Assembly (NCBI GenBank): GCA_044892525.1
Contig: CM097885.1
Location: 176,514,001 to 176,577,768 of the forward strand
Source of the DNA: Schmidtea polychroa
Lineage: Eukaryota
DNA: 63,768 nucleotides
Direction of reading: 5' to 3'
Under the pieces are notes generated by a model. It made no database searches. It was not told where the DNA came from and worked only from the letters and a program-made list of their open reading frames with translations. Position numbers and translations under genes: made by a program. Within the stretch, counting starts at the first letter, position 1, and every line of letters starts with the position of its first letter. Shown one piece after another: positions 648 through 47,004 of this stretch.

Positions 648-984
648 CAGTGGTGGGATTCAGCCGGTTCGCACTGGTTCGTGCGAACCATTTCCTAAAA
701 GTTTTTGGGTTTGCAGAACCGGCTGTGTTTACCAACAATTTAGCATGAAACAAAAAGTAAATAATCGCATATGAAATTCAAAAACTATCAAAAAAATAAA
801 AAATTAACAATTGCATAGGAAATTAAAAAATTTTCAAAAAAAAGTAGTCAATCTGTTGGGGCACCACTCGGTTGACCATCCTGTATTAACACTCTACTCT
901 AAGGGATGATTGTCCATTTTTGCTTAACAGCTATAATTTTGTCAACCTTGAGTCGAACCCCACATAATCCCTCCTCCAACATAG

Positions 985-1121
985 CACCCATGAATTGCTT
1001 CACATTGGTACTGTGCTATGCCGGCGAGACGTCAGCAGGCAGGTGAGCCCCTGCCTTAGGACTACTCCTTACTGAGGCCTCGACTTCCTCTCACTCGACT
1101 GCCGATGGAAGGACTTACGTC
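985..1121 (-). ncRNA. Conserved structured RNA motif of the LTR-like family (copy 1)
   Basis: GACGTAAGTCCTTC...GAGTAGTCCTAAGGCAGGGGCTCACCTGC...CAGTACCAA is shared with 8103 and 29111; the flanking stem covaries. Confidence 0.6.
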
Positions 1122-1384
1122 TAATCACGCTGACAAAACTCACGCTAACGTACACGAATGCAAATTTATCGAGGTAGGTCAAAATCCAGAAAACTTTCAT
1201 TCACCCCCGAATTGATGCTCATCTCTTCACCAAAATCAAAATAATAAGAACATCACGTTTATTATAATGTCATAACACTGAATTTTTGTACATTACGGAA
1301 ATTATTACCGTCAGAGAAAGAGTCAATGAAAATATAAGGTATTAGATTACAGCGAATGGCAGTCATTGAGATCGCGGTGGGTTT

Positions 1385-2134
1385 TCATTTTTCCCACTCG
1401 GTATCTTTCAGCAGTTCATCTAGATCAAAGAATTCAGCGGCGTTTTCTTCCCATGACACTCCAGTGGCTGAGACAATCGGCGCTGGAATCCCTGCGGTTA
1501 GATCAATAGATACATGAGAGTTATCGCCCTTGGTGAGATTTTCTGTGGAAGGGTCGTTGGATTTCGTTGATGCTCACTCACGCTGCCTCTTCTTGCGCTC
1601 GGCCCTCGATAACTGCCGACGCTTAGGCTTCGATATTGGTTGATTCCCCTGCAGCCCTACGGGTGCGGGTATGATGTGGGACTGTACTTTGCTGGTTCCC
1701 GTGAAGATAATATCCGGACGCTTCGGTGAGAGTTTGGTTTCGACGCACTCATGACAAGATCTTTTAAATGGAGACGATGATTTCGCCGAAGTGTCATGAT
1801 GCACTGGAAACAGGTTATCGGCTTCATTTATAGGAATTTGAACGATCTTCTTGGTCGTCGTTGCCTGGACATATACTTTATGTAATGCTTCGGACTGTTC
1901 TTTAATTAAACTTCGTTGGGCGCGGCTCTCGGAGATTAGAGCGTCCCGGCAGTGCTCGCTACGATATAGCTTTTTCTGCACTTCTTTCATTTGCACTGGG
2001 CTGAACCATGTGCCTTCCAGTTCGTCGATCTTACGTTTGTATCGACCGATCTGGGCTTGTAGGTCTTTGATCACCGCATTTCTATCCGAGCAGGAGAAGC
2101 AGGGACGTAGTGTTGGCTTGTTGTTCGGTATCAT
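1385..2134 (-). CDS. Uncharacterised element-encoded protein (CxxC, coiled coil, Arg-rich motif, acidic C-tail); in-frame TGA at 1574-1576
   Basis: Track ORF 1574..2194; the probable start is the ATG at 2134, just after a TTCGTTGTAG acceptor. After the TGA the frame continues 62 codons to SWEENAAEFFDLDELLKDTEWEK* (1385), matching homologues at 7268-7755 and 9001-9749. Confidence 0.65.
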
Positions 2135-2667
2135 TTGGATTACTACAACGAAAGGAAAAGTTATGACTACATCGGCAAATCGTGGATCAGACATAATGAC
2201 TTATTCACAGTTGCACGATTACTAAGGAAGGAAAGGACAAGATGAGTTGATGAGACAATTTTCCTCCCTTTGTGCTTAATCGCTGACATTCTATATGTTC
2301 TTTACAAGAATCACCCCTTAAGCCCTATATCATTCCTCTGACGAATGCAAACTATTTGTTAAAATTCAAAAAATTAAAAATTAACAGATTCATTAATTCG
2401 GAAATTTCCCTTTGGGTTACATAATTATGCATCACACCGAGAAATGAGATATACTACGCTGATCAATGCCCCAAACTTTCTCCTTTATGTCCTCCTAATA
2501 GGGCGCATATATAGGTAATCAAGAATTTATTGCTTAGATTTAATTATTAATTACAGCATTTAAAACAAATTTATTATTATTATCTATAAAATTTCTGTCA
2601 CTATTTATTAATGTCCAATTTAAAATATTCGCTATCGTATTCAACAATAATTCTATAATCAGTTAGA

Positions 2668-3117
2668 ATGTTGAGTCTAAAAGGTCGGAGTGTTATCACT
2701 ACTACCTTATCTAAAATATACCGATGCTGTTTCAGATACTTAACATTGAAAATTAGTTAATAGTTAATCCTAAGAATTTAACGCCTACTGTTATCGCTAC
2801 ACGAGATTTGTTACGGTAAGCATCTGCCAATCAAAATACATTGTATCTATTACTCGATACACTCATCTGTTATTACTTGTAACGACGGAATTTACACTGC
2901 ATATGTCACCTGGTGGAACGGTTATTTATCAATCATGTCGTTTCTCATTCACGCTCATGTTCAACTCTCATGGTTAGAAAATTGCTTTTATACATCTTCT
3001 ATTCACTGGAAATTTTCTGATACTCACATGTGGCATTGGAAAATTTTAGTTATCATCTCAACCTCTAGTTGTTTCTCACGGACATATGATGTTGGAATAG
3101 GTTATGATGAGTCGTAG
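2668..3117 (+). pseudogene. Antisense cargo ORF remnant in LTR-like copy 1 (hydrophobic, Cys/Trp/His-rich)
   Basis: One frame is open for 112 codons (2782-3117) in AT-rich DNA, in frame with an ATG at 2668 across three stops; no family recognised. Confidence 0.35.
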
Positions 3118-4957
3118 CTTCGTCAATATTGGAGATGTAAATAATATGATACCCCATTGCATAGATCGTTCAATCTCTATAAGTCCTATTTCAAGAGTAG
3201 ATATTCAAATCAATCGTAGAAATTCATTTGTGTCAGGTAATACGAATTGGTTATATGTGTGTATTAAATAAATCTTTGTCGCAACTTATTGTTATGAGTT
3301 GTTTTATTTTTTGACAATTATTGTTCATTTATTACTTTGTATCGACGTCAAAAGATCAAGATCTCGAATTTGGCTTATTGTCGCGAAAACTGAAGTTGAA
3401 TTCAAATTCTTAAAACGTCATAGAATTGCTTTAGTAGTGAAGGTTGATCGAGATTTTTTAAAGAACTTCGTGAGTTTAGAATTGTCGACGAAAATGGCAA
3501 GAGTAGCTTGGAAAAATAACACTTAACATCCCAGAGTCATTATGGAGACTCCCTCAGTCGCTGTGAAGCACATGTCTTATCCTACTACAAAATCGAAACG
3601 CATTATTCAATCTATGCCCTGACATTTTTACAGATTTTAGGTCACCTTCAGCAATTAGACCCGTGAAGAAGCCTTCACATTTCGGCCCAATCTAGCTGCG
3701 TGATTGAAAAACTCCATGTCCACCGGTGGAGCTCCCGAAGGCACCTCACACCATGACATGGAGTATCTCAACTCCACGTTTCTCGAAAATTTTTTGATTC
3801 ATAGAATTCTAATTCATAAAATCTTTGTTCATAGAAAAATCACAAAATTTCTAAATAAAATTCTTTTATTTCTACCAACTACAATCAACATCCAAATTAC
3901 TAAATTACTAATAATTAAAACGGAAATCAAATGAAGAGAATATTCTTTACTCATATTATATCAAGATTTTAGTCAATATTAATCATTTCAACTACTTTTA
4001 ACTTAGAGATAAGAGTAAAATAAAAATAAAGATCTCCTTACTATTGTGATCGGGGTTGAGGCTGAGTCAAAAACGTGTCGATTATGGCTTTACAACTAGT
4101 TCGTCTAATTCTGGTACTATTTAGTCCTTGAATGCTTAATCCGATAATGCTGTCGTCAAATTCGGTTATCCTTGAGTTACTGTGATCTCGAATGGTCGAA
4201 TTAACAGTTGATTTGCTGAAGTATTCTGGCTCTTGAATAAGTCCTATAAAATTTTTGAGTAAACGGTCATCTTAATGATTTTGGTGCCGGTTTATATAGT
4301 GATTTTTTATTTATGCGGACCAATCAGAATTGAGTACTGCTTATTTTATTAAATTAATTTGCTTTTCCTTATTTCTTTGGACTTTTTACTTATTTTTCCT
4401 ATTTTTATTATACCTTGTATTTATTTCTTAAATTCCTTATTATTTGTTGCATTTTTCGGCATCTTATTCGTTATCTTATTACCTTATTTTTAATTTTTTT
4501 CATTTTTTATTTTTTGTTTTAATCCTTATATTTCATTTTATTATTTCTTTCATACCTTAACTTATTTATTTTTAAAATTTGTTGTCTTAGTTTATTTTAT
4601 TCACATCCTATCTGTCTTAATTTTCGACGTTTTCCAAAGTTAACTTTTTTGACTCAGCCCAACAAATCGAATACGAAATTCAAAAAATTTACCGAAGTAT
4701 GCTTTACCAAAAATTTATGATTTGAATTTATGGTTTTAAAAAGTTTTCGTGAGTGTGGTTTAAATTTGTTTTATATTTTTCCAGTCTTCTTTAGGTAGTG
4801 TTTGTGACAACAAATTGTATTAAAATTGTAAGTATATATTAATAAATAGTTATTGTTAAATTAATTTTATTGGAAAACAATTGACGTTAAATTTATGTTA
4901 AATTGTGTTAGTTTTACTTAATTATATGTTAAATTTCTCGGTATTATTTTAGCCATC

Positions 4958-7054
4958 ATGAAGCGCGGTGGACAACCAGTTTTGTCTGATTTTTTTTCTA
5001 AAGAAGGTGAAGCCTGGTCAAGATATGACGCCAATAACAAACAGAAGAAGCAGAATCGCCACATTCAGCTAATACTGTGCAAATCAATGACGAAGTAAAA
5101 CACAATCTCCCAGATTGCTGGAAGCCCTTGCAATTTCAAGATTTTCAGAAGAAATATGATGGCTTATTAGTTCGAAATAAAAAATTGGGTTGTAATTATT
5201 GCGCGCAAATAGATTCAATAAAAGCGAAGGGAATTCATGTATCAGTTGAATGGAAAAGCTGCAATATTGAAGCATCTGGAAAAAATAAAACCATTCAACA
5301 AGCATTTCTCCGAAAAAAAATGAACACTTTTTATCTAAGGCTCACCAAGTTAGTGTACATCAGTTAAAAGGTCGTTCACAAGACGTAATTTTGCAATGTT
5401 TCGATAAAAGTAATGAAAAATACGTCGATTCTACATGTAAAATCTTTAATACTGTTTACAGTATAGCAAAAAGATGCAGACCATTTTCTGATATTCAAAA
5501 TGGGATTGAACTACAAGTTAAAAATGGATTGAGCATGGGAGTGAGACTCCATTCTCGCAAAACTGTAGTTAAAATTATTGATCACATTGCATCAGAAATA
5601 AAAAAGGAAATATTTTGCAAAATAATCGCAAAGGATTTGAAAATTTGCATCATAATCGATGAAGCCTCGACTATATCTAGTAAATCTGTACTAATAATTT
5701 ATTTAAAAGTTGAAGATTCTGATGTGCCACCAACAATATTTCTAGATTTAGTTGAATTGGAAGCATAAGATGCTGAAACCATATACACGACCATGTTACA
5801 GAGTATATATAAAGTTGAATTCGATATAAATTATTTGAAATCAAATTTGATTGCATTTTGTTCTGATGGTGCAAGTGTAATGCTTGGTCGTAAATCAGGT
5901 GTCAGCTCAAGACTTTCAAAAGATTTCCCTGGCACAATTATTTGGCATTGTTTAAGCCATCGTCTGCAATTGGTTTTAGATGATTCTATTGACACAATAA
6001 AACAAATAAATCATTTCAAGATATTTATTGATAAAATATTTTTCATATGATAAAGTGATTTTTCATAAATAAAATAAAAATCAGTTAGAACTTAAGAATA
6101 TTTCTGAAGAACTTGGGCTAGAAATTATAAAGATTGGCAGCTTAAGAGCAACAGTTGCTGTATGGAGGGCTTATCCAGCTTTATATAAATATTTTGTTTC
6201 TAATACGAAATATTCAGGAATGGCTAATCGACTTCGCAATAAATTCTTTTTACAAGATTTAGCAATAATGATTGATATTTTGCAAGAAATTTCATGTTTC
6301 AAACGCGCTTCAAGCTAGAAATTTAATAAAAAGATCCATGTTGGCCATTAAAATGATTAAAGAAAATAAAGGTATATATGAAAAGAAAGTGAATGAAGTC
6401 ATCAATTCAGATGCTTTTAAAGATATTAATTTTATAGAGCATACAATTTACAGTAGACTCCCTAGCCAAAAACTATTGGACGCAGTAATTGCTAATATGA
6501 GAACAAGACTAATGGATGATGATAACCATTTATTGGCAACAAAAAGTACGAAAAATGATACCAATAAACTTTTTGAAGTTATTAGCGTTCTGGAGCATGA
6601 TTCTTGGAACATCGATGAGATTGTGGTTCCACGGATAGCCGCAGAAGAGAAATTGGTCGGATTCACAGATATTTTTAAATACAACATCGACGTAAATGAC
6701 TTCCGTGACTTTTTGGAAAATGTTATAAGCAATCGCGAAATTTTTTTCATTCCATAATCAATACAAAGAGCAAAAAACATCAATACTGTAGCGATTAGTT
6801 CTGCGGAAGCAGAAAGAGGGTTTTCTACAATGAATCTAATATATTCCGAAAAAAGAAACCGTTTAATTGTTCAAAATGTTGCTAATCTCATGGTAATAAA
6901 TTTAATTGGTCTTCCTTTGGACATATGGAACCCTGAACGATTTGTTAAAACTTGGTTGAGGAAGAATCACTCTGCAGATGACAACAGAGTAAAAAAACCT
7001 GCACCAATAAACTATAATAATAATCAAATTTCAATTTGGAAATATTTGAAATAA
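4958..7054 (+). pseudogene. Disrupted hAT transposase (KIAA1586/ZNF862-like)
   Basis: Fragments show IIIDEASTIS (catalytic D), [25 protein letters not shown] and ISSAEAERGFSTMN plus the dimerisation domain; several stops and frameshifts. Confidence 0.9.
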
Positions 7055-7267
7055 TTTTAAACACTTTTTATATATATATATATATATAATAACTATCCTG
7101 TTTCTATTACCTTTTTTTAACTGTTTTAATTTAAAATAATATATGAAATTAAATAATGAATTGAAATAAAAACGATATCAAATTTTTGATTTTTTTTACG
7201 GCCGAACCGGTTCTCAATTGTTTTCCGGATACGAACCGGTTGTTAAATATTTTGAATCCCACCACTG

Positions 7268-7755
7268 ATGCAAGCATCAATTACAAAGAAGATCGTAGAC
7301 ATACCCATTGCGGAAGAAGACAACGTATTCCCGCACCACCATCTCTCATCGGCATCGTTATCTAACTCAGCTAAACAGGCACACCTGATTCATTCGAATA
7401 CCCTACGGCCAACAATCCCTGCCGAAGTAATTAGTACAGGCACTAGTCGAGCTGCCCCCAGAAAATAGATCTATCGACCCCATTCACTCTTCCGGAGGCG
7501 ACGAAAATCACCAAACGCCGGCAACCGTCTAGGGCCGAGCGCACAAAGAGAAGGAGGGCTCTCCAGGCTGAGAGAGAAGCGACTCTCATCGCCTCCGCCA
7601 AACCCCAAGCTCCAGTACCTTCAGCGGAAACCGTACTTCGTTCTCCTCCTGCGTTCAGGGTAATTCCGCTCACAAGTACGTCCTGGGAGGAAGACGCCCG
7701 AGACTTTTTCGATCTCGACGAGATCTTTGCCGGAACTTCCCCAAATACATTGTGA
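7268..7755 (+). pseudogene. 3' half of the element-encoded protein (copy B), one frameshift near 7455
   Basis: QASITKKIVDIPIAEEDNVFPHHH, EVISTGTS, TKRRQPSRAERTKRRR and TSWEEDARDFFDLDEIF align motif by motif with 1385-2134. Confidence 0.75.
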
Positions 7756-8102
7756 TTCGTTTCTTGTGTCGTAACTCATAAATATATTTTCTTGTCGTAA
7801 TCTATAAATATGTCTTAGTGTTGTAAATTATAAATATATATTCGTGTTATTGATCGATGAATTAAACGATTTCGAATGTTTGTTGGTGTTGAAGTCTGCG
7901 AATATGAAATTAAGCAGTGAATGCGGGGAGTGAAGATTAGAAGGTATATGGTAAGGTCAAACTTGCAGGGTAAAGAGGTGACGGAAAAACTGTAAATCTT
8001 TGTTGGTGTGTGTTGGAAGGAGATCGTTTTGGAGAATAAGGAATCATGGTGGAGATTGTTCGATGATGGGAATGATGCGTGCAATCCTTGAATGATGAAA
8101 AT

Positions 8103-8240
8103 GACGTAAGCCCTTCTAACGGCAGTCGAGTGTTAGTTAAGTCGAGTTGGGATGAAGGAGTAGCCTAAGGCAGGGGCTCACCTGCTTCATCGCAGCTCGC
8201 CGACATGACACAGCACCAACATGATGCGAATTGGTTAAGG
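8103..8240 (+). ncRNA. Conserved structured RNA motif (copy 2)
   Basis: GACGTAAGCCCTTC...GAGTTGGGATGAA-GGAGTAGCCTAAGGCAGGGGCTCACCTGC-TTCATCGCAGCTC. Confidence 0.6.
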
Positions 8241-9000
8241 GTCCCTTGGAACGATGACATGCTGCATATGCATTTAGGACTACCATCCCCTAGTAAGTGA
8301 AAATGTTTTCTGACCCGACCCAAGGCCCAGCAATATAAACACCGGAAGAGTCACATAATAATGCATTGATCTCCAGAACGAGGGAAAATGACGATAAATA
8401 ATAAATTTTCACCAAGTGCAATGATAATGTCAACATCTGCTATACGGCATATGGATCTCTAAAACTACTTCCAATAAATGTACCGGATATGCATAGTTAG
8501 ATTCCCCGAAATGTCAGTTATTTCATACAGTAGAAAGGCTACAATTTTGGAATGCGATATAAATTTTAATTTAAATCAATAATTAATAATTTTCCCCGTT
8601 GAATTTTCCTGGTAATAGTCGTTTTTTTTGCGACGTCATTCGAGCAAGTTGTTACCGAAATAAGTAATATTCAGTTATTAAGGTGGGTCGTCATACTCCG
8701 ATTGAATCTAGCCGGGGCTTATTCGATTGAAATTATAGGTTCAACCGCAATTAATGTGAGAAAGGTGTTGATATTAGGTTTGGCGCAGAATGTTGAACTT
8801 AACGGTATTAAATTTCGAGCGACGAAACCGCTGGCATGAAATGTTAATATGATTGATTGGAACCAGGGATGTTGCCGGTATGTGAACCGAATGATGAATG
8901 ACCAAAGGAGGGGTGAATGAGTTATTTTAGTATGCATCTTTCTGCCTGTAATGTGATTTGACCGAAACTCACTTATTTTCTTAATAAATTCGTTTTAGAT

Positions 9001-9749
9001 ATGGCCGTTCCGAACGCAAACAGCTCTACTCTACGACCTTGCTTTTCTTGTGCTGACAAGAATGTGTCAATGCACACCTTACAACTTGAAATCGGACACC
9101 TGAAAAAACGTACTGACTATTGGGGGGGGGGGGGGGGGGCGTGGTCACCCCCGTCCAGATGAAAGAAGCGAACAAGAAGATACTCCGGCTCGAACATTGC
9201 CGAGACAGTCTCTTGAAGGAGAGTCGTTCACAGCGTATCCATCTGCGAGAACAATCCCGAGCACTACATAAGGTTTGAACGTCTTTGGAACTCAAGAATC
9301 GTATCAATGGGTCTCCGGCTGTCGATCAGGGGAACATCTTTCCCAGCCACCATCTGAATGGAGGGGCAAGTTCCATGTCCGGGACACGGGAACGATGTGA
9401 GCACGCCATCAGTTCTTGAAGTCATCTACATCGGCACCAGTGTAGCTCCAACACCCAGCAAGGCGCCTATGTGGCTCCGGTCCCAGTTGTCGTAACCGGA
9501 AAACCCAAGCGTAAATCTCGTACACGCGCGGAGCGAACACAGCGTCGAAGAGCAAAGCAGGCAGAATCACAAGCAGCCCTAGACGCTTCCCATGCCAAAG
9601 CAGCTGCTGACATGGTTGCTGCAATCGAGTTCGCCAAATGTCCACCGTACCGAATTTTGTCTTCCGTCGGTTCCCGAGGAACGGAGGAAAACCAAGCCGA
9701 TTTCGCTCTTGAACAACTCATGCGAGAGGCCGAAGAGGAGGGATTTTAG
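9001..9749 (+). pseudogene. Near full-length element-encoded protein (copy C), disrupted
   Basis: MAVPNANSSTLRPCFSC...PVQMKEANKKILRLEHCRDSLLKESRSQR...EQSRALHKV*, NIFPSHH, EVIYIGTS, KPKRKSRTRAERTQRRR, DFALEQLM. A G18 run (9122-9139) and stops break it. A degenerate right end CCCCAACG lies at 9881-9888. Confidence 0.75.
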
Positions 9750-9889
9750 GTATCTTCTACCTCAATTCTACCCCAACCCAAGACGAGGTAGGATTAAGCG
9801 TGATGATTGCGGGAATTGAGCCATGAATGTATGATGTCTCCTAGACTATCAAAACGACGTGAGTCAACTTGAAGGGAATACCCCAACGA

Positions 9890-10770
9890 ATATATATACG
9901 ACTATGGGGTAAACGTCATTGACAATAATATTATATCTGCTGTGGTAGAAAGACAGGAAAACAATGAAATTGATACATCCCTCACTGGAATAAAGCATAA
10001 ACGAAGAAAATGACTATGACAAATTCTTTAGACTGTGGGATGCTTCCTCAGGAGGGGCGATGAAATCACCAACAGGTAGTGATGTGATCTTTCAACCCCT
10101 CGAGACTAGATATGATAATCTACATGAGACAATAGAAAGAATTGCTAAACAAGCAAATATGCAGGACGCAGAAACGATGATACGAGGTATGGGAAGGCCT
10201 CGAAAATCTGAAATCGCTGAGAAATCAGAGGAAAGAAAGGCAGCGAGCGTCTAAAAGATATAGCAAACAGGATGTTCCAAAAATCCAGGATGATAATAAA
10301 GAGGTGAATATGATAACGGAGCTAATTAATGCAATGAATACGAGACGATTCCCAGAAGCAAGACCATCAGTGTTAATAGAAAATATAGTTAAAAAATTTA
10401 AATTAATGAAGAGATTAGGGAATTGAGTACAGAGGAAGCGAATGTAGAAACGGTGTTAAAAATATTATTTACAACAGGAGTAAATAGGGACAAAGTGATT
10501 ACTGCGATGGCATATTTAATAGCGAGATACAAAAAACTTCTACGAATGAATCCAAAGGATCAAATAGAAAACATAGCTAAGCTGATATATAATAAACTAA
10601 AGATGGATGCTATGCCTTGGGTAACATTAAAGGAGGATGGAAATACTGTATGATGAGAGCCTAATAGAACGAGAAAGTATAAAAGCCAATAACACGGCGG
10701 AAGTAGATGATACGGAAGAGGCAGTTAAAAACCTTGTAAATAAAACCACTATGAAACCAAGTGTTAGATG
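9890..10770 (+). pseudogene. Decayed ~290-codon ORF of unknown family upstream of the env-like ORF
   Basis: Consecutive ORF pieces (10060..10254, 10423..10653 and intervening frames) joined by frameshifts and stops; helical, charged composition; not recognised. Confidence 0.4.
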
Positions 10771-11887: not shown

Positions 11888-12070
11888 ATGTCAATAGTAA
11901 TAATAGTAATAACATTATTATTAGATTTGATAAAAGGGAATAATGCAATCATAGCGTATGACTGTCAGAATCCCAAGTGGGGACAAAAGTATTCATTATT
12001 ATTTGTAGAAAATTGCCCATAGGCAAACCCAACAAAATTAATCATGGCAGACCCAAAGACCTTAATTTAA
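11888..12070 (+). pseudogene. N-terminus of a chuvirus-like / retroelement env-like class III glycoprotein, truncated
   Basis: Signal-peptide-like MSIVIIVITLLLDLIKGNNA followed by IIAYDC-x8-YSL-x5-C, the pattern I recall at the start of chuvirus-type glycoproteins and related retroelement env ORFs; continues *ANPTKLIMADPKTLI. TATA-like tract about 70 nt upstream. Confidence 0.55.
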
Positions 12071-12528
12071 CCTCCAGTAATTTTAAAAATTGATGAGTCA
12101 TCTGATGAGTCAAACTGATGAAACCGATAGAAATTTTAAAAATAAATTAATAAAAATACGCCCCTCCTCCCCCTCCCCCATTTGCCCTCCCTACAATGAG
12201 TCATATGTTTTTGTTCCCGGCTCCATCCTACTTGAAATTTTAAATGAAAGTTATTTTGATTTATAAATTTATTTTGAAGGAACCTGATGAACTTAGGGTT
12301 GTGAAAGGATTACAACTTGTAATGTATTGTTAAATTTTATCTTTTTCTTTTTTTTGTTGGTTTTAGTACAAAGTGTATTATAATTTTACACGTCGCACGT
12401 GGAGAAGATTTTATTTATTTGTTTTTTTATTTAAAAAAAACTATATAGCAATAATTTTTATCGCTATAGAAAATTGAATTTAAAAGATTAAAAAAAATCA
12501 ATAAAACATTTTTAAAAGCAACTAAAAT

Positions 12529-12870
12529 ATAATTGAAAACTTGTTCAAATATACAATTGGAATCTTGTGCAAGGATATAATTGAAAACCTATTCAAAGCT
12601 ACAATTGAAAACTTATTCAAAGATACAATCGAAAACTTATTCAAAGATACAAACGAAAACTTATTCAAAGATACAATTGCAAACTTATTCGAAGATACAA
12701 TTGAAAACCTATTCAAAGATATAATTGAAAGATATAATTGAAAACTTATTCAAAGATACAATTGAAAACTTATTCAAAGATACAAACGAAAACTTATTCA
12801 AAGATACAATCGCAAACTTATTCGAAGATACAATTGAAAACCTATTCAAAGATATAATTTAAAAAGATAT
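12529..12870 (+). repeat. 24-bp minisatellite (ACAATTGAAAACTTATTCAAAGAT), about 13 units
   Basis: Directly visible tandem units, with a higher-order duplication of variant units; translates to TIENLFKD repeats. Confidence 0.9.
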
Positions 12871-13299
12871 AATTGAAGAAAAAAAAAGATTATCACTAAC
12901 TATCGTATATCCTTGAGAATAATAAGTGAATCAAGAAGACTTTTGAAAGAAAATTAGTATATCATTGTAGAAATTCCTACTCATTCAAAAAAAACAAGAT
13001 TGTTAGATTTACTTATATTTTAATAAAAGTTAAGGATATTGTTTTGTTTGATTACTTTTCATAATATATTTGTTATTTGCCTACATAAACCGCATAGATA
13101 TAACATACACATACGCCAACTGTCCCAAACAGTTATTTTTGCGGAGACTCTGTTGGCCTCTACAATTTTCCTATACACAACACCATCATATTACTTTTTA
13201 CTGAATAAGAAGAATCTAACACAACTTATCATTTTTATAATGAAAAATGATCCTAATTTGTTTAAAGCTTAATGCGATTATGAAACTGGATTACATTTA

Positions 13300-16925: not shown

Positions 16926-18689
16926 TTATTCGATTTTGTTCATTTGATTACTTGACAAATCATTTATACTCTGGGATTTATATGTGCCATTTGAGTTAGA
17001 TTTGCTTTGTAAATATGGTCTATTTACTGTATCCCCGATAATTAAAGCTGAATATCGACGCCTGATTGGACAATAAGAACGGTTTGTTGGTTTGAATGTC
17101 AATTCTGAATCAGATGGTGAACCTAAATTTTTACAGTAACTTTTAATTTTGGATTTTTCATTTATAATCTGTTTCTCGCTTAATGATCTTTTCGGTAAAT
17201 ATGAGTCATCTTTTAATAGTCGTTTCTTTTCTGACTGAACTAATCTAACAAGTTTAGCCACTCGATTTCTTTGATCACTATTTAGGTAATATCTCATTTT
17301 AGAATTGTTCAAAGATTTCCTTTTATTTTTTAGCGTTTTTTTTTGAATTTCATTGTTCTCAATATTTTCTCCATGACTGTTTTCTAATGAAAATTTTTCC
17401 CCAAAAGGTTTTGCAATGAAGTAATTGTATTGTTTTAATAACGCTAATATATTCATTTTAATAGCGTTGATAATCGCTTGCATATTTGAAATTTGAACGA
17501 GTAAGCATGATTTTTCTAACGGTTTTATAAATTTGATATATAATTCCAACCAAAAATCAGAGAATAATGGAACTTTAGAAAGGGACTGATAAATATAGGA
17601 ATTAATTTTAAACGACGTTTTGGCAACGTAAATCCAAGGCATTATTCTAAGAACTTCTCTAGATAAATTAGGATCTGTGGAATTGAGAAAGTTTATAATC
17701 CCACCTTCGCTATTTAAGCCTATAGAAACAAAATATTCGGTTAGAAAATACCAAACTTTGTAGTTATTGATCCATGATATACAGCAGTTCAAATAGGACG
17801 GGTCGGATATCAGAGGAATTTTATGAATTAGTGTGTCAAGGGCGTTTTTATTCGTTGAAAAAGCGTTGGTGCTAGTTTCTTGAGGTTTCCTACTGATATT
17901 TGATTTTGTTAAGCAAAGCGAATCTGTTTCTTCCAAATCAGATTCTTGAGATGATTTAAGTTTGAAAATTGAAATTGTATCTGATTCATTTTTTAGTTTA
18001 ATTTCATTTGCTGATCTCCATCGATTGCACTCAATCAAAAATTCTTTTGATAATTTTTTGGAAAAATTTTCATTCGTAGGAATGTCGCATGTGAGTGAAG
18101 ATAATATATTAAGAGCAATAAAATTGAATTTACGACGATCTTCGCGACGCTTGGTCATAGAAGGTCCAGGAGGATCGATCATTACGACAAGTGCTGATAT
18201 ATTATCTGCTCTGATTCGACGACGTTTCCATTGAGAAATGGAATATTTTACCAACGAAGCTGCAGGATTGTAAAAGAAATTTGAATTGATATTTGGATCA
18301 AGAAATACTCGACGTTCAGTTTCTCGTTCACATATTCTAACGAGTTCTATAGCAGCTTCAACGGGTACGACATTCCATAAACCATCACTTCCAAGTACAA
18401 TGCACCTATGTTCTGTTGAATCGAGTGAAATGCATATCACATCGGGTTCTGGAGATATGTGATATATACCTTGATTCTGGTCATAGCTCCATAAATCACC
18501 AAGTGATCTAGTTACTGCGAGAAATGGAACCTGTTCATATTCGACTGAATCACCTTCAACGATATCTTTTTTTTTATTAGAATTTTTAGGTCTATTCCAA
18601 ACTACTCGTTGGACACCGCATTTCTTTGCTAGCATACCACCGTATTTTTCTATGCGTTTCTTTTCAACCAAATTGGATGGTTTGTGTTC
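16926..18689 (-). CDS. PPM1D: PPM1D/Wip1-like PP2C phosphatase, exon 3
   Basis: After the acceptor ttcag at 18690: EHKP...RVVWNRP...VPFLAVTRSLGDLWSYD...SPEPD...CIVLGSDGLWN...RIRADNISALV, all PPM1D-type motifs, followed by a long divergent C-terminus. Confidence 0.88.
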   Translation of the reverse strand, partial: EHKPSNLVEKKRIEKYGGMLAKKCGVQRVVWNRPKNSNKKKDIVEGDSVEYEQVPFLAVTRSLGDLWSYDQNQGIYHISPEPDVICISLDSTEHRCIVLGSDGLWNVVPVEAAIELVRICERETERRVFLDPNINSNFFYNPAASLVKYSISQWKRRRIRADNISALVVMIDPPGPSMTKRREDRRKFNFIALNILSSLTCDIPTNENFSKKLSKEFLIECNRWRSANEIKLKNESDTISIFKLKSSQESDLEETDSLCLTKSNISRKPQETSTNAFSTNKNALDTLIHKIPLISDPSYLNCCISWINNYKVWYFLTEYFVSIGLNSEGGIINFLNSTDPNLSREVLRIMPWIYVAKTSFKINSYIYQSLSKVPLFSDFWLELYIKFIKPLEKSCLLVQISNMQAIINAIKMNILALLKQYNYFIAKPFGEKFSLENSHGENIENNEIQKKTLKNKRKSLNNSKMRYYLNSDQRNRVAKLVRLVQSEKKRLLKDDSYLPKRSLSEKQIINEKSKIKSYCKNLGSPSDSELTFKPTNRSYCPIRRRYSALIIGDTVNRPYLQSKSNSNGTYKSQSINDLSSNQMNKIE

Positions 18690-22114: not shown

Positions 22115-22167
22115 CTAAAATATAAATTTGGTATTTTAATTTAGTTTTTTTAATAATATAATCTTGC

Positions 22168-22465: not shown

Positions 22466-23429
22466 TAAAATAAAACGATAAATTATCATTCATTTTAAAT
22501 ATTTCATAATTTAAACACAAATATTGCATTTTATTAATTTTATTGCATTTTTCAATTAGACTTAGTAATTTAATAACATTAGGAATATTTTTAAATAAAA
22601 ATAATTAAAAACCCTTATTTAATTAATTTTATTGTACTTTTAAATTACATGGATTCCGTCAAGAATATTTCGTCTACGTCTCAACCTAATCTTAATGCAG
22701 CGATCTTCTATGTCTGATCCGTGTGTTGGGTTAGAGCCGAAAAATTGAGAGCTTGTTTAAATACGTCCGAAATACATAGCATGGAAAATTCCCCTAGTCG
22801 AATCAAATAATACAAAGCAAAATATGTAACTCCGTGAGGATAAATAAACAGGTATAATAAAAATTAAATTGCAGTTTCCAACATATTTAAGGAAGAAACA
22901 GCGAATTCGAAAATTCTGTCAACTCGGAAAGTAGAGAATAATAAATAAAAGAACGAATTAATAATATAAAAATTTTAAATGATTTTGGTCTTATTTACAT
23001 ACGAAGGACCACATTCAAATTAATTAAGAATGTTATGGCTCTTATTTGCATAAAACAATTCTAGAAAAAATAAATCTCATTTAATTTAAAATAAATTACA
23101 TAAATCTGGCAACACCCGAGTATGTGTGCGCAGGCATTCTTAAATTTTTAGAATTAAGCACTCTCTGATTTAAAGGAGTGGCAAAGAATATGTTGGTGGG
23201 TATTACAAATTTGTATTAATACCGACCAAAATTTCATTATTTCAACTGGTTCTAATTTTTTTAGCTCTGACAAAATTTTATGCTCTCAGTTTTTCGTTAC
23301 TAACTGAGTTTTATTCAAATTTTATGCATTAATATTTGTGATATTTCAATATTAATAAATTTTTCGTTTTATTTTTCATTCTTTTTTATATGCTTTCTAT
23401 AAATTCTATTCTTTTTGAAACGGCCCATA

Positions 23430-23889
23430 AACTATCAGGCCAGATTGGTCGCCAACAGTGGGATGGCGGGGACACCTCGAGTAGACGTGTCTCCTTATAC
23501 CATGAGAAATATCTGATTATAATACCTTTACGACCCAAGATATGGTTTAAAAGAAAATTCAAAGCTCCAGGTAACTAAGTCTTTTACTATATCCTGACAT
23601 GGCAGGCTGGTCAGCTAATGAGGACACCCATAAGAGGTCAGAACTGGACATGGTTAAGAAATCTGGTAAACAAACTTGACGCCCGATGTTCCAGCGTCGG
23701 TTATCAGTCGTGGTGGACCCAGAACGTATCGACCCGGTGATATGCACGTGCTCATTGATATGGTTATTGCCATAGGTACACGGATGGTAAAAAGTAGAAT
23801 ATTCATGAAGGCGTTTAGGGAGGAGTTCGTGACAAATCTAACAATAACTCTGAAATGTTAAAATAACACATCCCCTAGGCGCCAACACG
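23430..23889 (+). mobile_element. LTR-like element right end (divergent copy)
   Basis: CATAGGTACAC..GATGG...GGCGTTTAGGGAGGAG aligns with 29226-29292; ends CATCCCCTAGGCGCCAACA. Left boundary approximate. Confidence 0.55.
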
Positions 23890-24010
23890 TGATTCTAATG
23901 TTCATATCTCTTATAGGCACCTGATCTTCTTTGATCTGCTTCCTTTGAGCTTCAATCACCTTTTTCAACTTCTTCACATAGTCAGGATGAAACCATGTTG
24001 ACTCTAGGCT
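23890..24010 (-). pseudogene. Fragment of the element-encoded protein (copy D)
   Basis: RRY*SLESTWFHPDYVKKLKK aligns with GRYKRKIDELEGTWFSPVQMKEVQKK of copy A. Confidence 0.45.
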
Positions 24011-25227
24011 TTAATACCTCCTGACCAGTGCGTCAGCTCGCTATATCGACGTAGCCGTCTTGGATGTATAGAAGGTAACATCCATCAAGAACTTTTCAAA
24101 TTCTGGATCCACTACAAAAAATTCAAAATTCAATTCAAACATTTCTAACTAAATCACCGAAGTTGCTGAAGAAGTCGAAGCATCAGAAGTAGTTGTTGAG
24201 GTTGAAGAAACCGAATAAATCGATCAAGGCCATTCAATATATGTCATAAATAAATATTGTATTTTAATATCGAATTGTATTTTATTAAACTCAATAAAAA
24301 ATATGACAAGTAAATCCAGCGAAGGGTAGAAATGGAAATAAATTTGAATTAAATGAGAGGAAAGAATTTTGAAAATTGAAAAGTACTATTTTTATAGTTG
24401 AAAATTCTTTCATTTCATTTTATTGAATATATACTTTGCAGTAAAAGGCTTATATTATCATTTAATCTTTTAACATTATTATTATTATTATTGGTGAATC
24501 GCAGGTAATTTACAATTTATCTCGTCGTGCTGTCGCTGTGCCATCTGACACCCTTTGAGTGATCAATGCTGGAACTGTGTCGGATGTGTGAATACTCCCA
24601 TAAAGTGTGCGTACCTTTGTACACTATAATCGTCGAGTATTCTAGTGGGTTCACGGACTACCGTTAGAAGGCAATTGTCCGTCTTTATCTTGGCCGTCTT
24701 TTCATTTCTTTAGTGTTGAAAAAGCAAAAGTATTAAATGACACCAGTACAAATTTTTAATTTTTCACTGCAATATATGATATTATTTCGTACGTCAACTC
24801 GCGTTCTATCCATTGGCGCTCGTTAATTCTGCCAAACTCCAAGTTGCTACCCTGACCAGTCATTTGACGCTTTGTGATTCTTGTCTCAAATGGTTGATCT
24901 CATTTTATAATAAAAATAAATTACATGATTAGATTGATTAATCTGTTTTCGAATTTGGATTGTCAGCTACAACCACTTAGTTTTTCTCGTGACTATTTAG
25001 GATTTATAGAAAATATAATAAAACTCAAAACAACATATTTACTTTAATTAACATATTATTTAACGATTCCATTAACTTTACGGCTTAGGTAGAATGTTCG
25101 GTGATACGTGCTTCCTTATGTGACCGTTGTCGGGCGCGTTCTAGTTTACCTGACTTTACTTTACTTGGTAGGTCTCGTGATTCCGTCATTCGCATGATCG
25201 GGCCTACAATCAGAATACCCTTTGAGA

Positions 25228-25452
25228 TGTTGGGTGCCTGGAGTCGCTAGGCGATATAGTCATCGACTCTATCCTGATTTACTTGCGTCTCCAATCTTTA
25301 ACGCCTTGAGTTTCATTAATCTTAAGTAGCTTGAGTCGGGTACTAGGAGATTCATCGCGCCTTGTTGAAACCAAATGTCTTTTAACGTTTCACACTTGCT
25401 CTTGAGTTTTCAATTTTATAATGGGAAAGTTTACTAATAGGAATGCAGATTC
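25228..25452 (-). mobile_element. LTR-like element right end (minus strand)
   Basis: Minus strand reads AAGGCGTTAAAGATTGGAG...ATCGCCTAG...GGCACCCAACA, the same terminal motif order as the other copies; abuts the PPM1D duplicate. Confidence 0.5.
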
Positions 25453-25752
25453 CAAATATTATTTCAACTAGAAAACCATTTGTAGTGAAATAAATGAAAT
25501 AATATTAATTGGATTTTCCAAAAATAAGCAACTAAAATCAGTTGTATCCATAACTCTAAAGTTTATTAACATAAGTTTTGAAATAACAGGTTCATATTTT
25601 GCGAAAAAATTGGCTAAGATATTTATTTTGGAACTCAGAAATAGCGATTTATTCGATTTTGTTCATTTGATTACTTGACAAATCATTTATACTCTGGGAT
25701 TTATATGTGCCATTTGAGTTAGATTTGCTTTGTAAATATGGTCTATTTACTG

Positions 25753-26212
25753 CAGGGGTCTCAAACACGCGGCCCGCGGGCCGCATGCGGCCCCCTGCGT
25801 TACATTTGGCGGCCCGCAACGAAAAAACATAGATTTGTAATTTAACCAAACTTATTTAACAATTAAAATCATAATTGGCTGTATAAATTAAAACTTATCT
25901 TTTTAATTATTTTTATTTANNNNNNNNNNNNNNNNNNNNNNNNNNNNNNNNNNNNNNNNNNNNNNNNNNNNNNNNNNNNNNNNNNNNNNNNNNNNNNNNN
26001 NNNNNNNNNNNNNNNNNNNNNNNNNNNNNNNNNNNNNNNNNNNNNNNNNNNNNNNNNNNNNNNTAGTTTTGTTGAGTTTTTAATTAAATAAATATTAACG
26101 TCGGAGTTTCAGACTCCACATGTTCTGAAAAACAATTATTTATGTTGCGGCTCGCCGGCTCATAATACTAGTCTAATGCGGCCCGCAGGCCAGTTTGAGT
26201 TTGAAACCCCTG
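25753..26212. mobile_element. hAT (Charlie-type) MITE
   Basis: TIRs CAGGGGTCTCAAAC / GTTTGAAACCCCTG, exact 8-bp TSD ATTTACTG (empty site visible in the intact gene near 17024), GCGGCCCGC subterminal motifs; contains an N gap. Confidence 0.93.
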
Positions 26213-27935
26213 ATTTACTGTATCCCCGATAATTAAAGCTGAATATCGACGCCTGATTGGACAATAAGAACAGTTTGTTGGTTTGAATGTCAATTCTGAA
26301 TCAGATGGTGAACCTAAATTTTTACAGTAACTGTTGGGCTATAAACCGAGAAACCCGAATTTTTTTATAAAGAAATTAAATAAAATCTTGTTATAACATC
26401 AAATTAGGGTAATCAGTCAAGTATTAAGAAAAATAAAGAATAAGGAAGGGAGAAATAATAAAATAAAATAAAGAGATAAACAAAATCACCAAAATAAAAT
26501 AAACGACAAATAATTCCCAAACAGAACACGCAACCACAACTGAGAAGCAAAACAAAATAGCTAAGAAATATAAAGCAAAATATCAGAAAAACAAAATATT
26601 AATAATAAAACGAATAATAATCAACAGAAAACAATAATTAAAACAAAAAAGAATAAAATACAAAATCACAAACAGAATAACCAACAGGATCCAACAAAAG
26701 AAGGAGGAAAATAAGAAAAATTAAATTATTTAATAAATTACAAAATAAAAGCAATAAATAACCTGAAGAAAAGAGTTAAAAAGAATAAAAATAAGAAAAA
26801 ACACAACTTTACACAATAGCTGGATCCTGATTGAATGAAAATTAATATATAAGAAAAACAACTTGACTGATTCCTTCAATTCTAAAAATTTTCATTCAGG
26901 TAAAACTTTTCACGGTAAAAATCAATTCTAAAAATTTTCATTCAGGTCACTCATTAGGGGCTAATTTTATCATCAATTATACTCATTCGGAACTTTTATT
27001 ATCCATTTACAGTACAGTGTAGTATTCGATTCAAGGAGTTGAGATTCGACGAACAAGGAAAGATAAAAATGTAAATCTTGATTTGTATTTATTTTACGTA
27101 TATTTTATTATTCTATGTAACATTTAAATAAGTTAAAATATTAATGTTCTCTCTCTCTCTTTGATAATTTGATTTTTCACATCATTTATTTAATCATTTG
27201 AGTTGAATGTCGATGAGTTTACGATTTAGCGATGCCATTTTCAATGAAGAACGATTGGAGCATATTCCGAACAGTCGATATGAACGATGAATGCACCTGA
27301 GATGTGATAGTAATGATTAGAGAATAGTAGGAATCAACGAGCCAGTGTTATAACTGTGGAAGAACGATCGACCCTCTCCTGAGATGGGAGATATCGGAGC
27401 GTGAATGACAGGTAGAGATTGGAAGAAGGTTGGATTCAACATCAATTTTCTCGAGAATGATCAAATCAACCACCAGAATGTACAAAGGTTAGGAGCATGA
27501 GGAATTATTCCTGGCAGGGAATGAAGACTGGAGAATCAGATAGAAGAGAGGAAATGTTCCGGTGAATGGATATGGAGGATATGGAAATGGAGGATTGATT
27601 GAGAATATTAGGCATTGGATAGGCAGCTCTTTAGAGTAGGATTGATTGAGAAGAGAAGAATCTGTTGTCACCAAGGTATGAGGTACTTCAGAATGAGATT
27701 AGTATCTTGAAAATTGTGTATTGAAATCGTTATAATTAAAATTTCATTTTATTTTTTATTTATTTATCATTAATATGTGTGGCGAGACATGTTTGGGAAG
27801 ACGTTTGGGTATCGCTAGCACTCGTGCCGGTGGTAATCAGATGATTTTTGCAGATGGGAACGCCGGGGTGCAATTTAACTTGATAGATCTAAAGTTTGTT
27901 CGTTTTGGAGTTGATGAATAGAGAGTATTGGTTCT

Positions 27936-28553
27936 TCATATCAGTAATGCACATAGATTGATGAATATATAAGCCAGAATCATTCCATCAGGCAACCACT
28001 TTTGTAAGATAGGCGTAATAAGCAATCCACTGTACGCAAACATCGTTGGCAAGAAGCAATGAATCCAATGGTCACACTTGATTTCGTTGAGAAATTGGTC
28101 CAGACACTTATTTCCTGAGAGTGATTCGACCAGGTCGACATATAGCACTTTCTAACGAGTTGACATATCACATTAAAATCTATATATTTTCCACAGTTAG
28201 TTGATGTAAATAGCGATTGTTTATCCATGAGATTCCGTAGAATCGGAAAACGCAGTATAACAGCAGAATTTCAACTTTTGATAATCATCTTGTATTACCG
28301 CCGCTGTTGAGGAAATCGACACAACATCCGGTCTATTCTGGAAACGTTCGTAGACTTTGATATATTTCATACGGCCAAATCGAAATAATCGCCTCTCCTC
28401 GTCACGAGTGAAGGTAAACAGGGTGCACCGTGAACTATCCGCTAACAAGCAATTGCAGAAAATTATCCATTCGTGATAATCACGATTTGTATACAATGGG
28501 TAGAGACAGAGCGTCAATATCAAAAGTAAACTATAATTAAGGCCCTGATTCAC
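27936..28553 (-). pseudogene. Antisense cargo: signal peptide + Cys-rich ectodomain + C-terminal TM protein, two frameshifts
   Basis: Three overlapping track ORFs (28221..28553, 27980..28228, 27936..28148) concatenate into MNQGLNYSLLLILTLCLYPLY...many Cys...GMILAYIFINLCALLI. Confidence 0.45.
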
Positions 28554-29110
28554 TTAATTTCCAAGTCCCAGCACAATGTGTATTCATCGAAAATAAATCG
28601 GAGTCCTCGTTTAATTTATCTCGAATTCGCCTTAAATCTATCAAGAATGTTTATTCTAAAATAAACAATGGCCTAGCATAATTAAATCTTAAAATCAGTT
28701 ACACTATATCGTACCATAAATAAATAGAGTTGCCTATTAATTAAGGCAGAATGTGGTCGAAGCTGCAAATTAAATTAGATAATAAGTCGAATAATAGAAA
28801 GAATGGTCTTAAAAACGAATTACGGCAAACCTAGGGATTTTAATTTAAACAAACGGGTGAGTGTGCGAAGATCGTCCCTGCAAATTTTGTTTTTTCCATT
28901 TTAGATTAATTACTTTCAGGTCCCAAATTGTTAATTTTCGTAAAACTGAACTTACGATTAGGAAAACTTATGGTTACATTAGGATTTTTCTTGATTTATT
29001 TATCTTTAGCATTTTTCTCCGAATAAGTAGTCGTGCTGAAATAAAGGAAAACTGGAAACAACCTCACTTGGACCAGGGATATGTTAGAAATGGAAGAGAT
29101 GAATGAAGTA

Positions 29111-29250
29111 GATGTAAGTCCTTCTGGTGGCATTCAAGAACCCGAATTTTGAAGGTCAGGATGAGTAGTCCTAACGCAGGGGCTCACCTGCTCCTGAGTT
29201 CCAACCCATGTGTGCAGTACCAACATGATTCGTTGTCATGGGTACACATG
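29111..29250 (+). ncRNA. Conserved structured RNA motif (copy 3)
   Basis: GATGTAAGTCCTTC...TCAGGA-TGAGTAGTCCTAACGCAGGGGCTCACCTGC-TCCTGA...CAGTACCAACATGA. Confidence 0.6.
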
Positions 29251-32200
29251 ATGGAGAATACTGACAAATCATAATGGGCGTTTGGGAAGGAGTCCCCTAC
29301 GTAACAACCATCATCACCCCTAAATGACCATCATCGCGACACACCCCTAAGCGCCCAACAATAACTTTTAATTTTGGATTTTTCATTTATAAATGCGCGT
29401 CCATAATCTATAAATTGGACGTTCAAGATACTCTGGGACTGGTAAGTCACATATTATTAATGATAGGTTGAAAAATTGTCGTACGTCTGTCCGAATCGCA
29501 TCTGTCGTGGAAATTGATCTAGGTTCATCATTATTTGTAACTTCGATATTTGATTTTTTGTTTAATAATATGTTTTAATATAATGAAATTAATATTGGTT
29601 TCCAGAGTTTAGTAACATTTAGGTAAATCATGTGGAACTTTCGTATGATACGTGACATTTTGCATTTCGTGATTTTTAAAATGAATTGTTCGTTTTAAGA
29701 CTGTCATTTCCCTCAGGTTTATCGGGATTTTTTGAGTCGGTTATTTGACTGGAGGATTGTAGATTTTTCGAATTTTTAATGTTTAATATCGTTTGTTTCA
29801 GATGAATCATAATTATCTGCATTATTCTGGTTATGAATAAATAAAAATGGAACGATAGTCTGAATAACATGGTTTATATGTGCTAGCTTTTAATTGTATT
29901 AACAATCTACTCCATTTTTTTTGAATATTATCGTGAATTTGAAACGTTTAATAATTTATTTACTTGCGATTCATAACTCATTGGATGTTAAGATGACAAG
30001 TTTTCTCTATTTTTAATGTCGATTTTATGTATGTTAGTTAGTATGTGCTAAGATTCGATTTAAATTAAATTTGCTCGTCCCACTTAGCCCACTGGACATA
30101 AGTTTGACGAGTCCTTAGTATTGTGTAATAAGATCTTGGAGATACGAACAAACTTAAAAGTTTGACGCGGTTCACGATCTTCTTTATATAATTTAATACT
30201 TACCTCTTAAGTTTCACTAGTTGCTCGACTTATCTGTGCGTGAGCGTGATAGCGTAACGTGAGGCTTCCCATAAATAGGAGAAGGAGCGTTGGGGCGTCC
30301 GCACTTCACATGGCCTTCTTTCACTGTTGACAAAAGATGTTGCAGTGTTAACTGCGCAGATGAACTACCTCATTCCTTGAGGAAATTATATACTCAATTT
30401 TCGGACTTCCGTGTGATGTTGTTGGCTGTAGCCGAAAAATCTAACTATCAAGTCTAATAAAGTTTAAGTATACGAAAATGATTCCATAAAAATGTCAATG
30501 AAAAATCAAAACTTAAACTCGAAACTTTAATTGCATGATTAAAACATAAATCCTTACTTCAAATAGAATGCTTCAAACAATATCAAAATATTGTCTTCCA
30601 AAATTTTCATGCATTAAATTTTGACTAAAATGCTCTTTTTCTATACTCTAATTTTTGAGTGTGAGTATATGTGCTTACTGATGCAGTAAATAAATTATTT
30701 ATTTTATCATAGCCAAAGTATCATGGAAAATATACACGGAAAATGATATTAGATGATTGTAAGTTAAATAGAGATATTTCAGACCAAAATGGCTTATGGT
30801 AATTGCAAACTCAAATCTTGTAGCACCTATGTTAATATATGGGAATGGTGTATTTGCGAGAGTATCTGGGGAAGCATTGTATAATTAAGAAATCTTTGTT
30901 CAAATAATATAATAACAGCAATGTTCAAATGAATTGAATGTGAGTGTATATGGGAAATTGAGATTTGTGAACCTAATAACTCGAATGTTATTAGTGGACG
31001 AAACCTTAAGTGTTTCAATGCAGTCGATTAGTAGTAGCATTGTATCGTTTAACACGGGACTCATTGATATCTTTGCCAGATGACACTATGAAAAATTGCA
31101 TCTATTGTACAAAACGCATATGATTAAACTATAAATCTCTCGCACTTCAACTCCTAAATCTTTACTCAAATTTTTTCTCCTCAAGCAGTATTGTAATTTG
31201 ACTGTTTTGTTTGTCCTAATATTATATAAATAAAATGAGACTGATCACCTGAAACAACCTTTACTAGGAAGGGTTTGGAAAATAATCTTACAAATGTATT
31301 TCTGAAAAACTCTTTTGATACATTGTTTCACACATCTGGAAATTTTGAAACAATGTATATGTGACAGGAGGGAACTATTCTGGTGAAAGAAGAAAGGTTT
31401 TAAAGAACTGTTTTTGTGTCTATTCACCGTTTTTGAGAATTTTGGAAATTAGGAAGTAAGACAAACGAGGGAATGTTAGGATTTTGTGGAAGGAAAGTGT
31501 GGCCGTAATTCCATTTATCTGAACTATGTTATTACTCTTTAATAATTATTTAATCCAAGATCTTATATTTGCCTCTATCACTGATGCCCCTTTGAATTAG
31601 AGACCCTAGACAGCTGTGTACCTAGCCTATGCCTAAAGCTTTGTTGCTTATATGGAAATTTCTGCTTATTATTTGTTTCTAAATTTAATATTTTTTGTCC
31701 TTGAGGAGCTGGAAAAGGTTTTTGCTACTTTGATTTATTTGGGTTTTAGCTTGGCAATGGGCATTTAATTTATCAAACTCAGGGATCACGTTCTTAATTT
31801 AATTTTTTAAATTTCGGCGATGCCAAGATACCGGAAGGATTTTGGAGAGAGCATCGTCCCCAACAACCTGAAATTTCTCAACTTCTGCGTAGAACGGCTG
31901 TATGACCATTAGTTTTTAGAAGTTTTCTGTAACAACACAGAATTTGCATATTTATCATTGTTTATAAAGTTAATCAAACTTGCGACTTTTGAATTAGTTT
32001 AATTTTTCAATAACGATAGTCTCTGAAATGTTCTGGGAATAGGGGTAGTTTTGCAAACAAATCCCATTTGGGTGAGTTTTAAGGGAGACATCTAGAGAGT
32101 TGAAGAATAGTATCTTCTACAGACACCTTGGTTCCAGGAAATTCGTGAACTTAGCAGATCCAATAAGTTTTCGGGTTTCTGACAGACTACACATTACCGC

Positions 32201-47002: not shown

Positions 47003-47004
47003 TC

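Follow-up and report, generated by a model that had tools for sequence, protein, structure and literature searches.

The window analysed here is a 63,768-nucleotide (nt) stretch of Schmidtea polychroa DNA (contig CM097885.1, positions 176,514,001–176,577,768, forward strand), within which all copy counts below were made. It has a base composition of about 32% G+C, small introns (in RPL15 and PPM1D) and many transposon remnants. Its first 29 kb contain a family of insertions, elements A to D, that are probably solo long terminal repeats (LTRs) of a complex gypsy-type retroelement, and of which A and C carry copies of a conserved open reading frame (ORF), referred to here as ORF-X.

Complete copies and their ends

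Three copies are complete, all with TGTTGG at the left end and CCAACA at the right. Element A (854–4664, minus strand; 3,811 bp; terminal inverted repeat 7 bp) is inserted in a hAT transposon with a hAT dimerisation domain, and is flanked on both sides by GATT (AATC on the plus strand). Element B (26332–29360, plus strand; 3,029 bp; terminal inverted repeat 8 bp) lies within a duplicated 3′ piece of PPM1D (25447–29392, minus strand; 97–99% identical to the gene); its left flank ends with TAAC, its right flank starts with ATAAC, and its empty site is present in the PPM1D gene itself, at 17133–17144. Element D (22724–23887, plus strand; 1,164 bp) is flanked by CGTG and has inverted repeats of 6 bp, as read from the sequence. 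The preliminary description of this DNA had listed the right end of D, at 23889, two positions too far, and had overlooked that it closes a complete copy.

The same description gave the duplications as 4–5 bp. They are exact and 4 bp long in A and D, which favours 4 bp, and in B consist either of 4 bp with an extra A or of 5 bp with a mismatch. A 4-bp duplication is present at each of the three complete copies, imperfect in B, with a chance match of 0.006 per site. The reported size of 3–4 kb is correct for A and B, but D measures only 1.2 kb. Both A and B lack terminal direct repeats, and their middles, each translated in six frames, gave no Pfam match to reverse transcriptase (RT) or integrase, in agreement with the earlier statement. 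The two middles also fail to align with each other (540 frame pairs, best score 52); that the cargo differs had been observed.

Of the six ends that had been assigned to one family, four share homology in the final 300 nt. Shuffle tests gave z-scores of 31.8 for A–C, 22.4 for A–B, 19.8 for C–B and 10.2 for B–D (0 of 200 shuffles in each case); the right end of D does not match A (z = 0.6) or C (z = −0.2) directly and is linked to them via B only. The remaining two, at 9888 and 25228, share only the terminal motif, with no match (z ≤ 2.5) in the same test against nine other stretches. TGTTGGG occurs 12 times on the two strands, against 4.9 expected, which makes the bare heptamer weak evidence. 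We regard A, B, C and D as diverged subfamilies, with 69–77% identity in the best block. The last 11–12 nt of four right ends (854–865, 23877–23887, 29349–29360 and 25228–25239) lie inside the element, as judged from the duplications; they seem to resemble a tRNA-Lys primer-binding motif.

Modules of the complete copies

Near the left end of A, the promoter-like motifs CTGATTG and TATATAA (4292–4327, minus strand) follow a stretch of 53% A. Such CAAT/TATA-like boxes had been reported for both large copies and are confirmed, with a spacing of 29 nt in A and 19 nt in B (26827 and 26846). The A-rich 5′ part that A and B were said to share is not homologous: their first 600 nt align with a z-score of 3.0, the value for B against an unrelated AT-rich control being 3.1, and the likeness is one of composition. 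A poly(A) hexamer lies 320–470 nt from the right end (1258–1263, minus strand, in A, 410 nt from the end; AATAAA at 29040 in B), and promoter and poly(A) motifs are present in A, B and D, in AT-rich sequence. The stretch between these fixed modules is about 0.3 kb in D, against 2–3 kb in each of A and B; as its modules on the two sides are similar and enclose so little, D reads as a cargo-free form.

In A, the variable middle cargo falls within a putative intron (2143–4041, minus strand), predicted from a GTAAG donor at 4041 and a pyrimidine-rich acceptor ending at 2143. The acceptor is followed by ORF-X (1385–2134, minus strand; 249 codons, with a single in-frame stop at 1574–1576), by the hexamer, which is the sole AATAAA or ATTAAA of the last 900 nt, and by a conserved right-end, U5-like block (974–1121, minus strand). 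At 4055–4076 (minus strand), 22 nt of the left end of A recur in inverted orientation (0 of 200 shuffles), a repeat absent from the four other elements tested. Located about 590 nt into A, it could pair with the left end in a transcript of a 3′ LTR; both 22-nt copies hold TGAGTCA, which we take to be AP-1-like. The longest stop-free middle frames of A (2782–3523, plus strand) and B (27983–28553, minus strand) run antisense to the elements, are cysteine-rich with hydrophobic starts and are not homologous to each other; an antisense cargo gene is only suggestive (P = 0.04 and 0.07 against shuffles, 12 tests).

Partial and related copies

Only the right part of element C is present (7268–8332, plus strand), comprising the frameshifted 3′ half of ORF-X (7271–7755), ATTAAA at 7860 and the conserved block at 8103–8232. 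Its left part is lost at the end of the hAT transposon that hosts A (648–7267). The ends of this transposon match but its 8-bp flanks differ, a sign of rearrangement that explains the loss. Directly behind C is segment E (8333–9888, plus strand), with an acceptor at 8998 and an ORF-X copy at 9001–9749 that contains a stop and frameshifts. Owing to the lack of both a poly(A) hexamer and the conserved block, 9888 is an unconfirmed end. The bases that follow C (8333–8345, ATATAAACACCGG) resemble the TATA context of A (ATATAAACCGG), and the insertion site of C may have been E's own TATA box. A weak fourth ORF-X relative, segment J (23951–24034, minus strand), scores 6.7 bits against −1.0 for the best of 30 shuffles, in a frame that reaches the right end of D; the likeness is not significant with a shallower profile.

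Element F (40790–41750, minus strand) is A-rich, with TATAAAA at +444 and a probable end near 40790. A purine tract (AAGGGGGAGA) stands directly before its TGTTGGGG start at 41736, which is a mark of a 3′ LTR and sets the likely orientation. Its first 20 nt resemble the start of D (P = 0.012), with no wider homology to the other element stretches in the shuffle comparison. F appears to be a 3′ LTR of ordinary size, weakly linked to D, and its polypurine tract suggests that the left ends of the family are LTR starts. Upstream of F is a broken gypsy gag–pol (47000–53200, minus strand; RT E-value 3e-33, CCHC knuckle), of which F could be the putative 3′ LTR.

The conserved right-end block

The 3′ 250 nt had been described as conserved between A and B; a conserved block exists, but it spans only about 150 nt, at 69% identity. 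It is shared by A, B and C, in which it lies between the hexamer and the right end, 115–265 nt from the latter; it opens with GTAAG, a splice-donor motif, and holds a near-invariant core hairpin of 16 nt. The core is flanked in all three copies by a 6-bp closing stem in which letters have changed and pairing is kept (P = 0.02–0.03 each, the values for A and B not being independent). An Rfam search of positions 1–32000 gave no match at E-values up to 1, and one with the block of A gave two chance-level matches, with no known RNA family and no known self-cleaving ribozyme. Bacterial and archaeal genomes lack the core motif.

ORF-X

Pieces homologous to the ORF-X of A are found in C and E, with 41–65% identity in the best blocks; B and D have none. 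The distance from ORF-X to the conserved block is 260–350 nt in both A and C, whose blocks are 77% identical, so the arrangement is likely to be the native layout and not a chance deletion. Identity between the pieces is 96/138 (70%) at codon position 2 and 47/138 (34%) at position 3 (P = 5e-9), in a test that pools three of the five pieces and is somewhat inflated by the local protein alignment; all five share the trend. The far greater divergence of third positions indicates a protein under purifying selection.

When a profile was searched against 1.84 billion proteins, 17 matches were obtained, none below an E-value of 1e-10. Four (P0001, P0003, P0011 and P0017) were discarded as repeat or chance matches, and the other 13 share the ORF-X core. 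Ten of these 13 relatives also contain an unrelated domain (for example, neurotransmitter transporter, actin, subtilase or phosphatase), with the core at varying positions, and probably represent gene models that swallowed a mobile exon. The entries concerned (P0002, P0004–P0008 and P0013–P0016) carry the host-domain annotation with an ORF-X segment inside, are probably chimeric and are worth flagging.

The aligned proteins follow one plan, with a helical core, a short conserved motif, a proline/threonine linker, an arginine-rich stretch and an acidic-hydrophobic tail. In the predicted structure (mean predicted local distance difference test (pLDDT) score 67.5), two helices (residues 15–40 and 46–98) are confident, and little else. 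The arginine-rich motif is present in A, C and E and, by pattern, in 6 of the 13 relatives, and coincides with a predicted helix (residues 177–185). Apart from one sub-cut-off REV match, considered below, ORF-X has no match in protein families, PDB or BFVD. A viral fold search with the model gave nothing at an E-value of 0.001; with ORF-X alone, none of 42 candidates from a word-indexed search reached 0.01 and no relative was found in Atlas (best 0.89). A deeper profile recovered three of the same proteins and no new one. We treat ORF-X as an unnamed protein family.

Cargo fragments behind segment E

Downstream of E are two further coding fragments. One, part of a broken ORF (10402–10650, plus strand), is Bcl-2-like (PF00452, E-value 5e-4, 21 bits, cut-off 31.4), with presumed BH1- and BH2-like motifs, the latter in another frame. 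The other, after 1.2 kb of AT-rich DNA, is the truncated start of a Monjiviricetes-type fusion glycoprotein (11888–12019, plus strand), with its own methionine, a hydrophobic leader and a match to positions 5–45 of the 653 in PF24664 (E-value 0.003). A structural model of the Bcl-2-like piece is poor (pLDDT 53), and a fold search with it was uninformative: the 50 matches listed include no Bcl-2 protein, and the best Z-score is 5.4. A SUMO-like reading of 9994–10251, where Burro elements have such a domain, was dropped, as only short WD-repeat matches were obtained. A 24-bp tandem array follows the env fragment at 12527–12877.

Probable solo LTRs as proposed transcription units

Taken together, A, B, C and D are probably solo LTRs of a single lineage of large, complex gypsy-type elements, itself probably env-bearing and of the Burro type, in which the LTR would be a transcription unit in its own right. 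The preliminary description had left a choice between giant gene-bearing solo LTRs and non-autonomous cassettes. The former is better supported, owing to the promoter motifs on the left, the hexamer on the right, the conserved block, the cargo-free D and the polypurine tract of F; the absence of terminal repeats other than inverted repeats of 7–8 bp in A and B counts in the same direction. That description had missed the conserved cargo gene shared between copies and the Bcl-2-like and env-like fragments, which point to a Burro-type parent.

Each full element would have been inserted by an integrase, generating the 4-bp duplications, and recombination between its LTRs would then have removed gag–pol and left a single LTR. 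As laid out in the copies, the LTR would begin with a constant, A-rich module bearing the promoter motifs, continue with a variable stretch and close with a constant module that holds the hexamer, donor motif and stem-loop; the variable stretch ends in ORF-X in A and C, and in A an acceptor precedes it. A short spliced transcript would encode ORF-X, with the variable cargo in its intron, and read-through would yield genomic RNA. The cargo may lie in a long R, the 5′ poly(A) site being bypassed as in foamy viruses, or may lie in a long U3 that has an additional promoter, as sag does in mouse mammary tumour virus (MMTV).

That an arginine-rich protein is encoded next to a conserved stem-loop is suggestive of a switch of the Rev/Rex/Tat kind. 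By this analogy the best candidate role for ORF-X, though a tentative one and less likely than not, would be that of an RNA-binding regulator promoting the read-through or the export of the long RNA, perhaps via the stem-loop. More doubtful is the wider proposal that an invertebrate gypsy lineage, independently of the complex retroviruses of vertebrates, evolved an LTR serving as an early gene, whose arginine-rich regulator would bind the stem-loop of the same LTR and switch expression from the short to the genomic RNA.

Several results weigh against the solo-LTR interpretation or parts of it. The window contains no pair of copies around a gag–pol, the sequence after 8332, 9888 and 25228 shows no TGG primer-binding site, and the link of F to the family is weak. 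ORF-X cannot be needed in every LTR, as B and D are without it, and all four copies in the window are broken; its REV match, on the arginine-rich part, concerns 1 of 15 rows and is below the cut-off (E-value 7e-4). Folding of the whole block is significant for A (z = −3.85), marginal for C (z = −2.06) and not significant for B (z = −1.32), with −1.64 for the end of D. The Bcl-2-like and fusion-protein matches are both under the Pfam cut-offs, and four further tests of the former gave no confirmation. These two fragments follow E, whose end is unconfirmed, and may lie past an unrecognised end of E, in an internal region behind C, or in another element. The env fragment has its own start, 1.2 kb past the Bcl-2-like piece, whereas Burro is described with both in one polyprotein (PMC6431247).

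Among the alternatives, the least improbable is that the copies are non-autonomous cassettes, deletion derivatives whose two ends stem from different LTRs (the left end from one, the right end from its partner), with former internal genes such as ORF-X between them, and copied by an autonomous element. The differing middles, the lengths of 1.2–3.8 kb and the lack of paired copies in the window would fit, as would the first 610 nt of A, which are bounded by the 22-nt inverted repeat like a small unit, and segment E, where ORF-X lacks the right-end block and stands upstream of the Bcl-2-like and env-like cargo in the manner of an internal accessory gene. Retrotransposition needs terminal redundancy, however, which A, B and D do not have; A and C would each have had to undergo two precise deletions on their own, and the expected places inside hold neither a primer-binding site nor a purine tract. 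We consider such cassettes unlikely.

Ordinary short solo LTRs of about 1 kb, enlarged by later unrelated insertions and with a family look due partly to chance, would account for the size of D and F, for the non-alignable middles of A and B and for the failure of two of the six listed ends. The presence of ORF-X in the same place in A and C, under selection, and middles free of inner transposon ends and of Pfam transposon domains make this very improbable. Non-autonomous cut-and-paste transposons moved by a Ginger-type, integrase-like transposase are a slighter prospect still: Ginger1 and Ginger2 share the TGT termini and 4-bp duplications, but their inverted repeats measure 40–270 bp against 7–8 bp here, and the targets GATT, TAAC and CGTG differ from the CCGG/CCGT described for Ginger1 (PMC2836005), and the ends here have a polarity, marked by promoter and poly(A) motifs. 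A multipartite integrating element, whose segments would have the same integrase ends and packaging block around different genes (ORF-X, cargo, Bcl-2-like, env), would explain shared ends and unlike middles in several pieces within 29 kb, but is at least as improbable, as copies 23–31% different even in the block look like subfamilies where segments would need near-identical signals, and nested insertion explains the clustering.

If A to D are solo LTRs, the consequences extend beyond this window. Solo LTRs are usually regarded as non-coding scars, and here each could leave behind not only a promoter and splice sites but also a protein gene under selection; the ORF is already joined to unrelated host domains in 10 database gene models. 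Should the early-gene proposal hold as well, every solo LTR would supply host genes with a regulator that can be expressed and with a strong splice acceptor. As one LTR holds both ORF-X and a matching candidate for its RNA target, the idea of a Rev/Rex-like switch beyond the retroviruses of vertebrates is directly testable. If the parent proves to be a known Burro subfamily with an LTR gene already annotated, the value of the finding drops to that of an annotation.

Neighbouring features

The duplicated PPM1D piece that hosts B also holds a 460-bp miniature element (about 25753–26211) with an 8-bp duplication. A single element running from 31865 to 25228 and carrying the PPM1D piece was considered and rejected, as its flanks (AGGT and TCTC) are unlike. 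Another TGTTGGGG start occurs at 31865, in a moderately A-rich segment (29393–31865, minus strand) in which no purine tract, partner end or homology was found. A long non-LTR element occupies 53350–59300 (plus strand), and no tRNA gene is present in the window. Two short frames have no Pfam match: one preceding the hAT transposon (575–647), which we take to resemble a BEL/Pao gag motif, and one at 42750–42850 (minus strand), presumably like the C-terminal motif of Helitron-type PIF1 helicases.

Comparison with known systems

Multi-kb LTRs and LTR-borne genes are each already known. No account of the family, nor of an invertebrate gypsy LTR with a gene inside it, came up in the literature searches, although repeat databases or the primary Burro papers may contain one. 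Retrozymes and other ribozyme-bearing elements differ in that no known self-cleaving ribozyme was found here with Rfam. Complex retroviruses have LTR-borne or overlapping genes and arginine-rich regulators, such as sag and Rem in MMTV, nef and Rev in human immunodeficiency virus and Rex in human T-lymphotropic virus. The elements described here are similar in having an ORF inside the LTR, an arginine-rich motif and, likewise within the LTR, a donor motif and an RNA structure. They differ in that the retroviral ORFs lie in or overlap U3, and homology is confined to the one arginine-rich REV match.

In foamy virus, a splice donor and RNA structure inside the LTR control bypass of the poly(A) site (PMC3694450); as described there, the donor is upstream of the hexamer, whereas the donor motif here is downstream. 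Anakin, a Pao element with a chuvirus glycoprotein and LTRs of about 670 bp (PMC7642597), has captured a fusion glycoprotein of the class that the fragment behind E weakly matches. Its excerpted description includes neither an LTR gene nor Bcl-2, and no Pao domain was matched near the glycoprotein start here. The Ginger transposons also have an integrase-like transposase, which is absent from A, B and D, as it could be from a non-autonomous copy (PMC2836005). Ogre elements of dicots have LTRs of 1.9–6.5 kb, a size range like that seen here, but belong to a plant lineage, and the internal region is where their additional ORFs are placed (PMC6431247).

The closest counterpart is Burro, or GYPSM1, of planarians, a giant gypsy-like element with an internal region of up to 25 kb and a total length of over 30 kb, in which a BCL2-like motif and an env related to mononegavirus fusion proteins follow each other in frame, in one polyprotein of 4,900–5,100 amino acids (PMC6431247). 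Burro-type elements are reported to be important for the survival of planarian stem cells (cited in PMC13465017). Common to both are multi-kb LTRs (implied in the Burro description), the order of a BCL2-like sequence and a mononegavirus-type env (here sub-cut-off fragments that may belong to another element), accessory ORFs and an AT-rich host genome; the Burro description mentions no gene inside the LTR (PMC6431247). The family is not filed as Burro, with which it was compared by description only, as the in-frame BCL2–env feature fails. Were its parent confirmed, it would extend Burro-type elements to a form with a separate env and a gene in the LTR.

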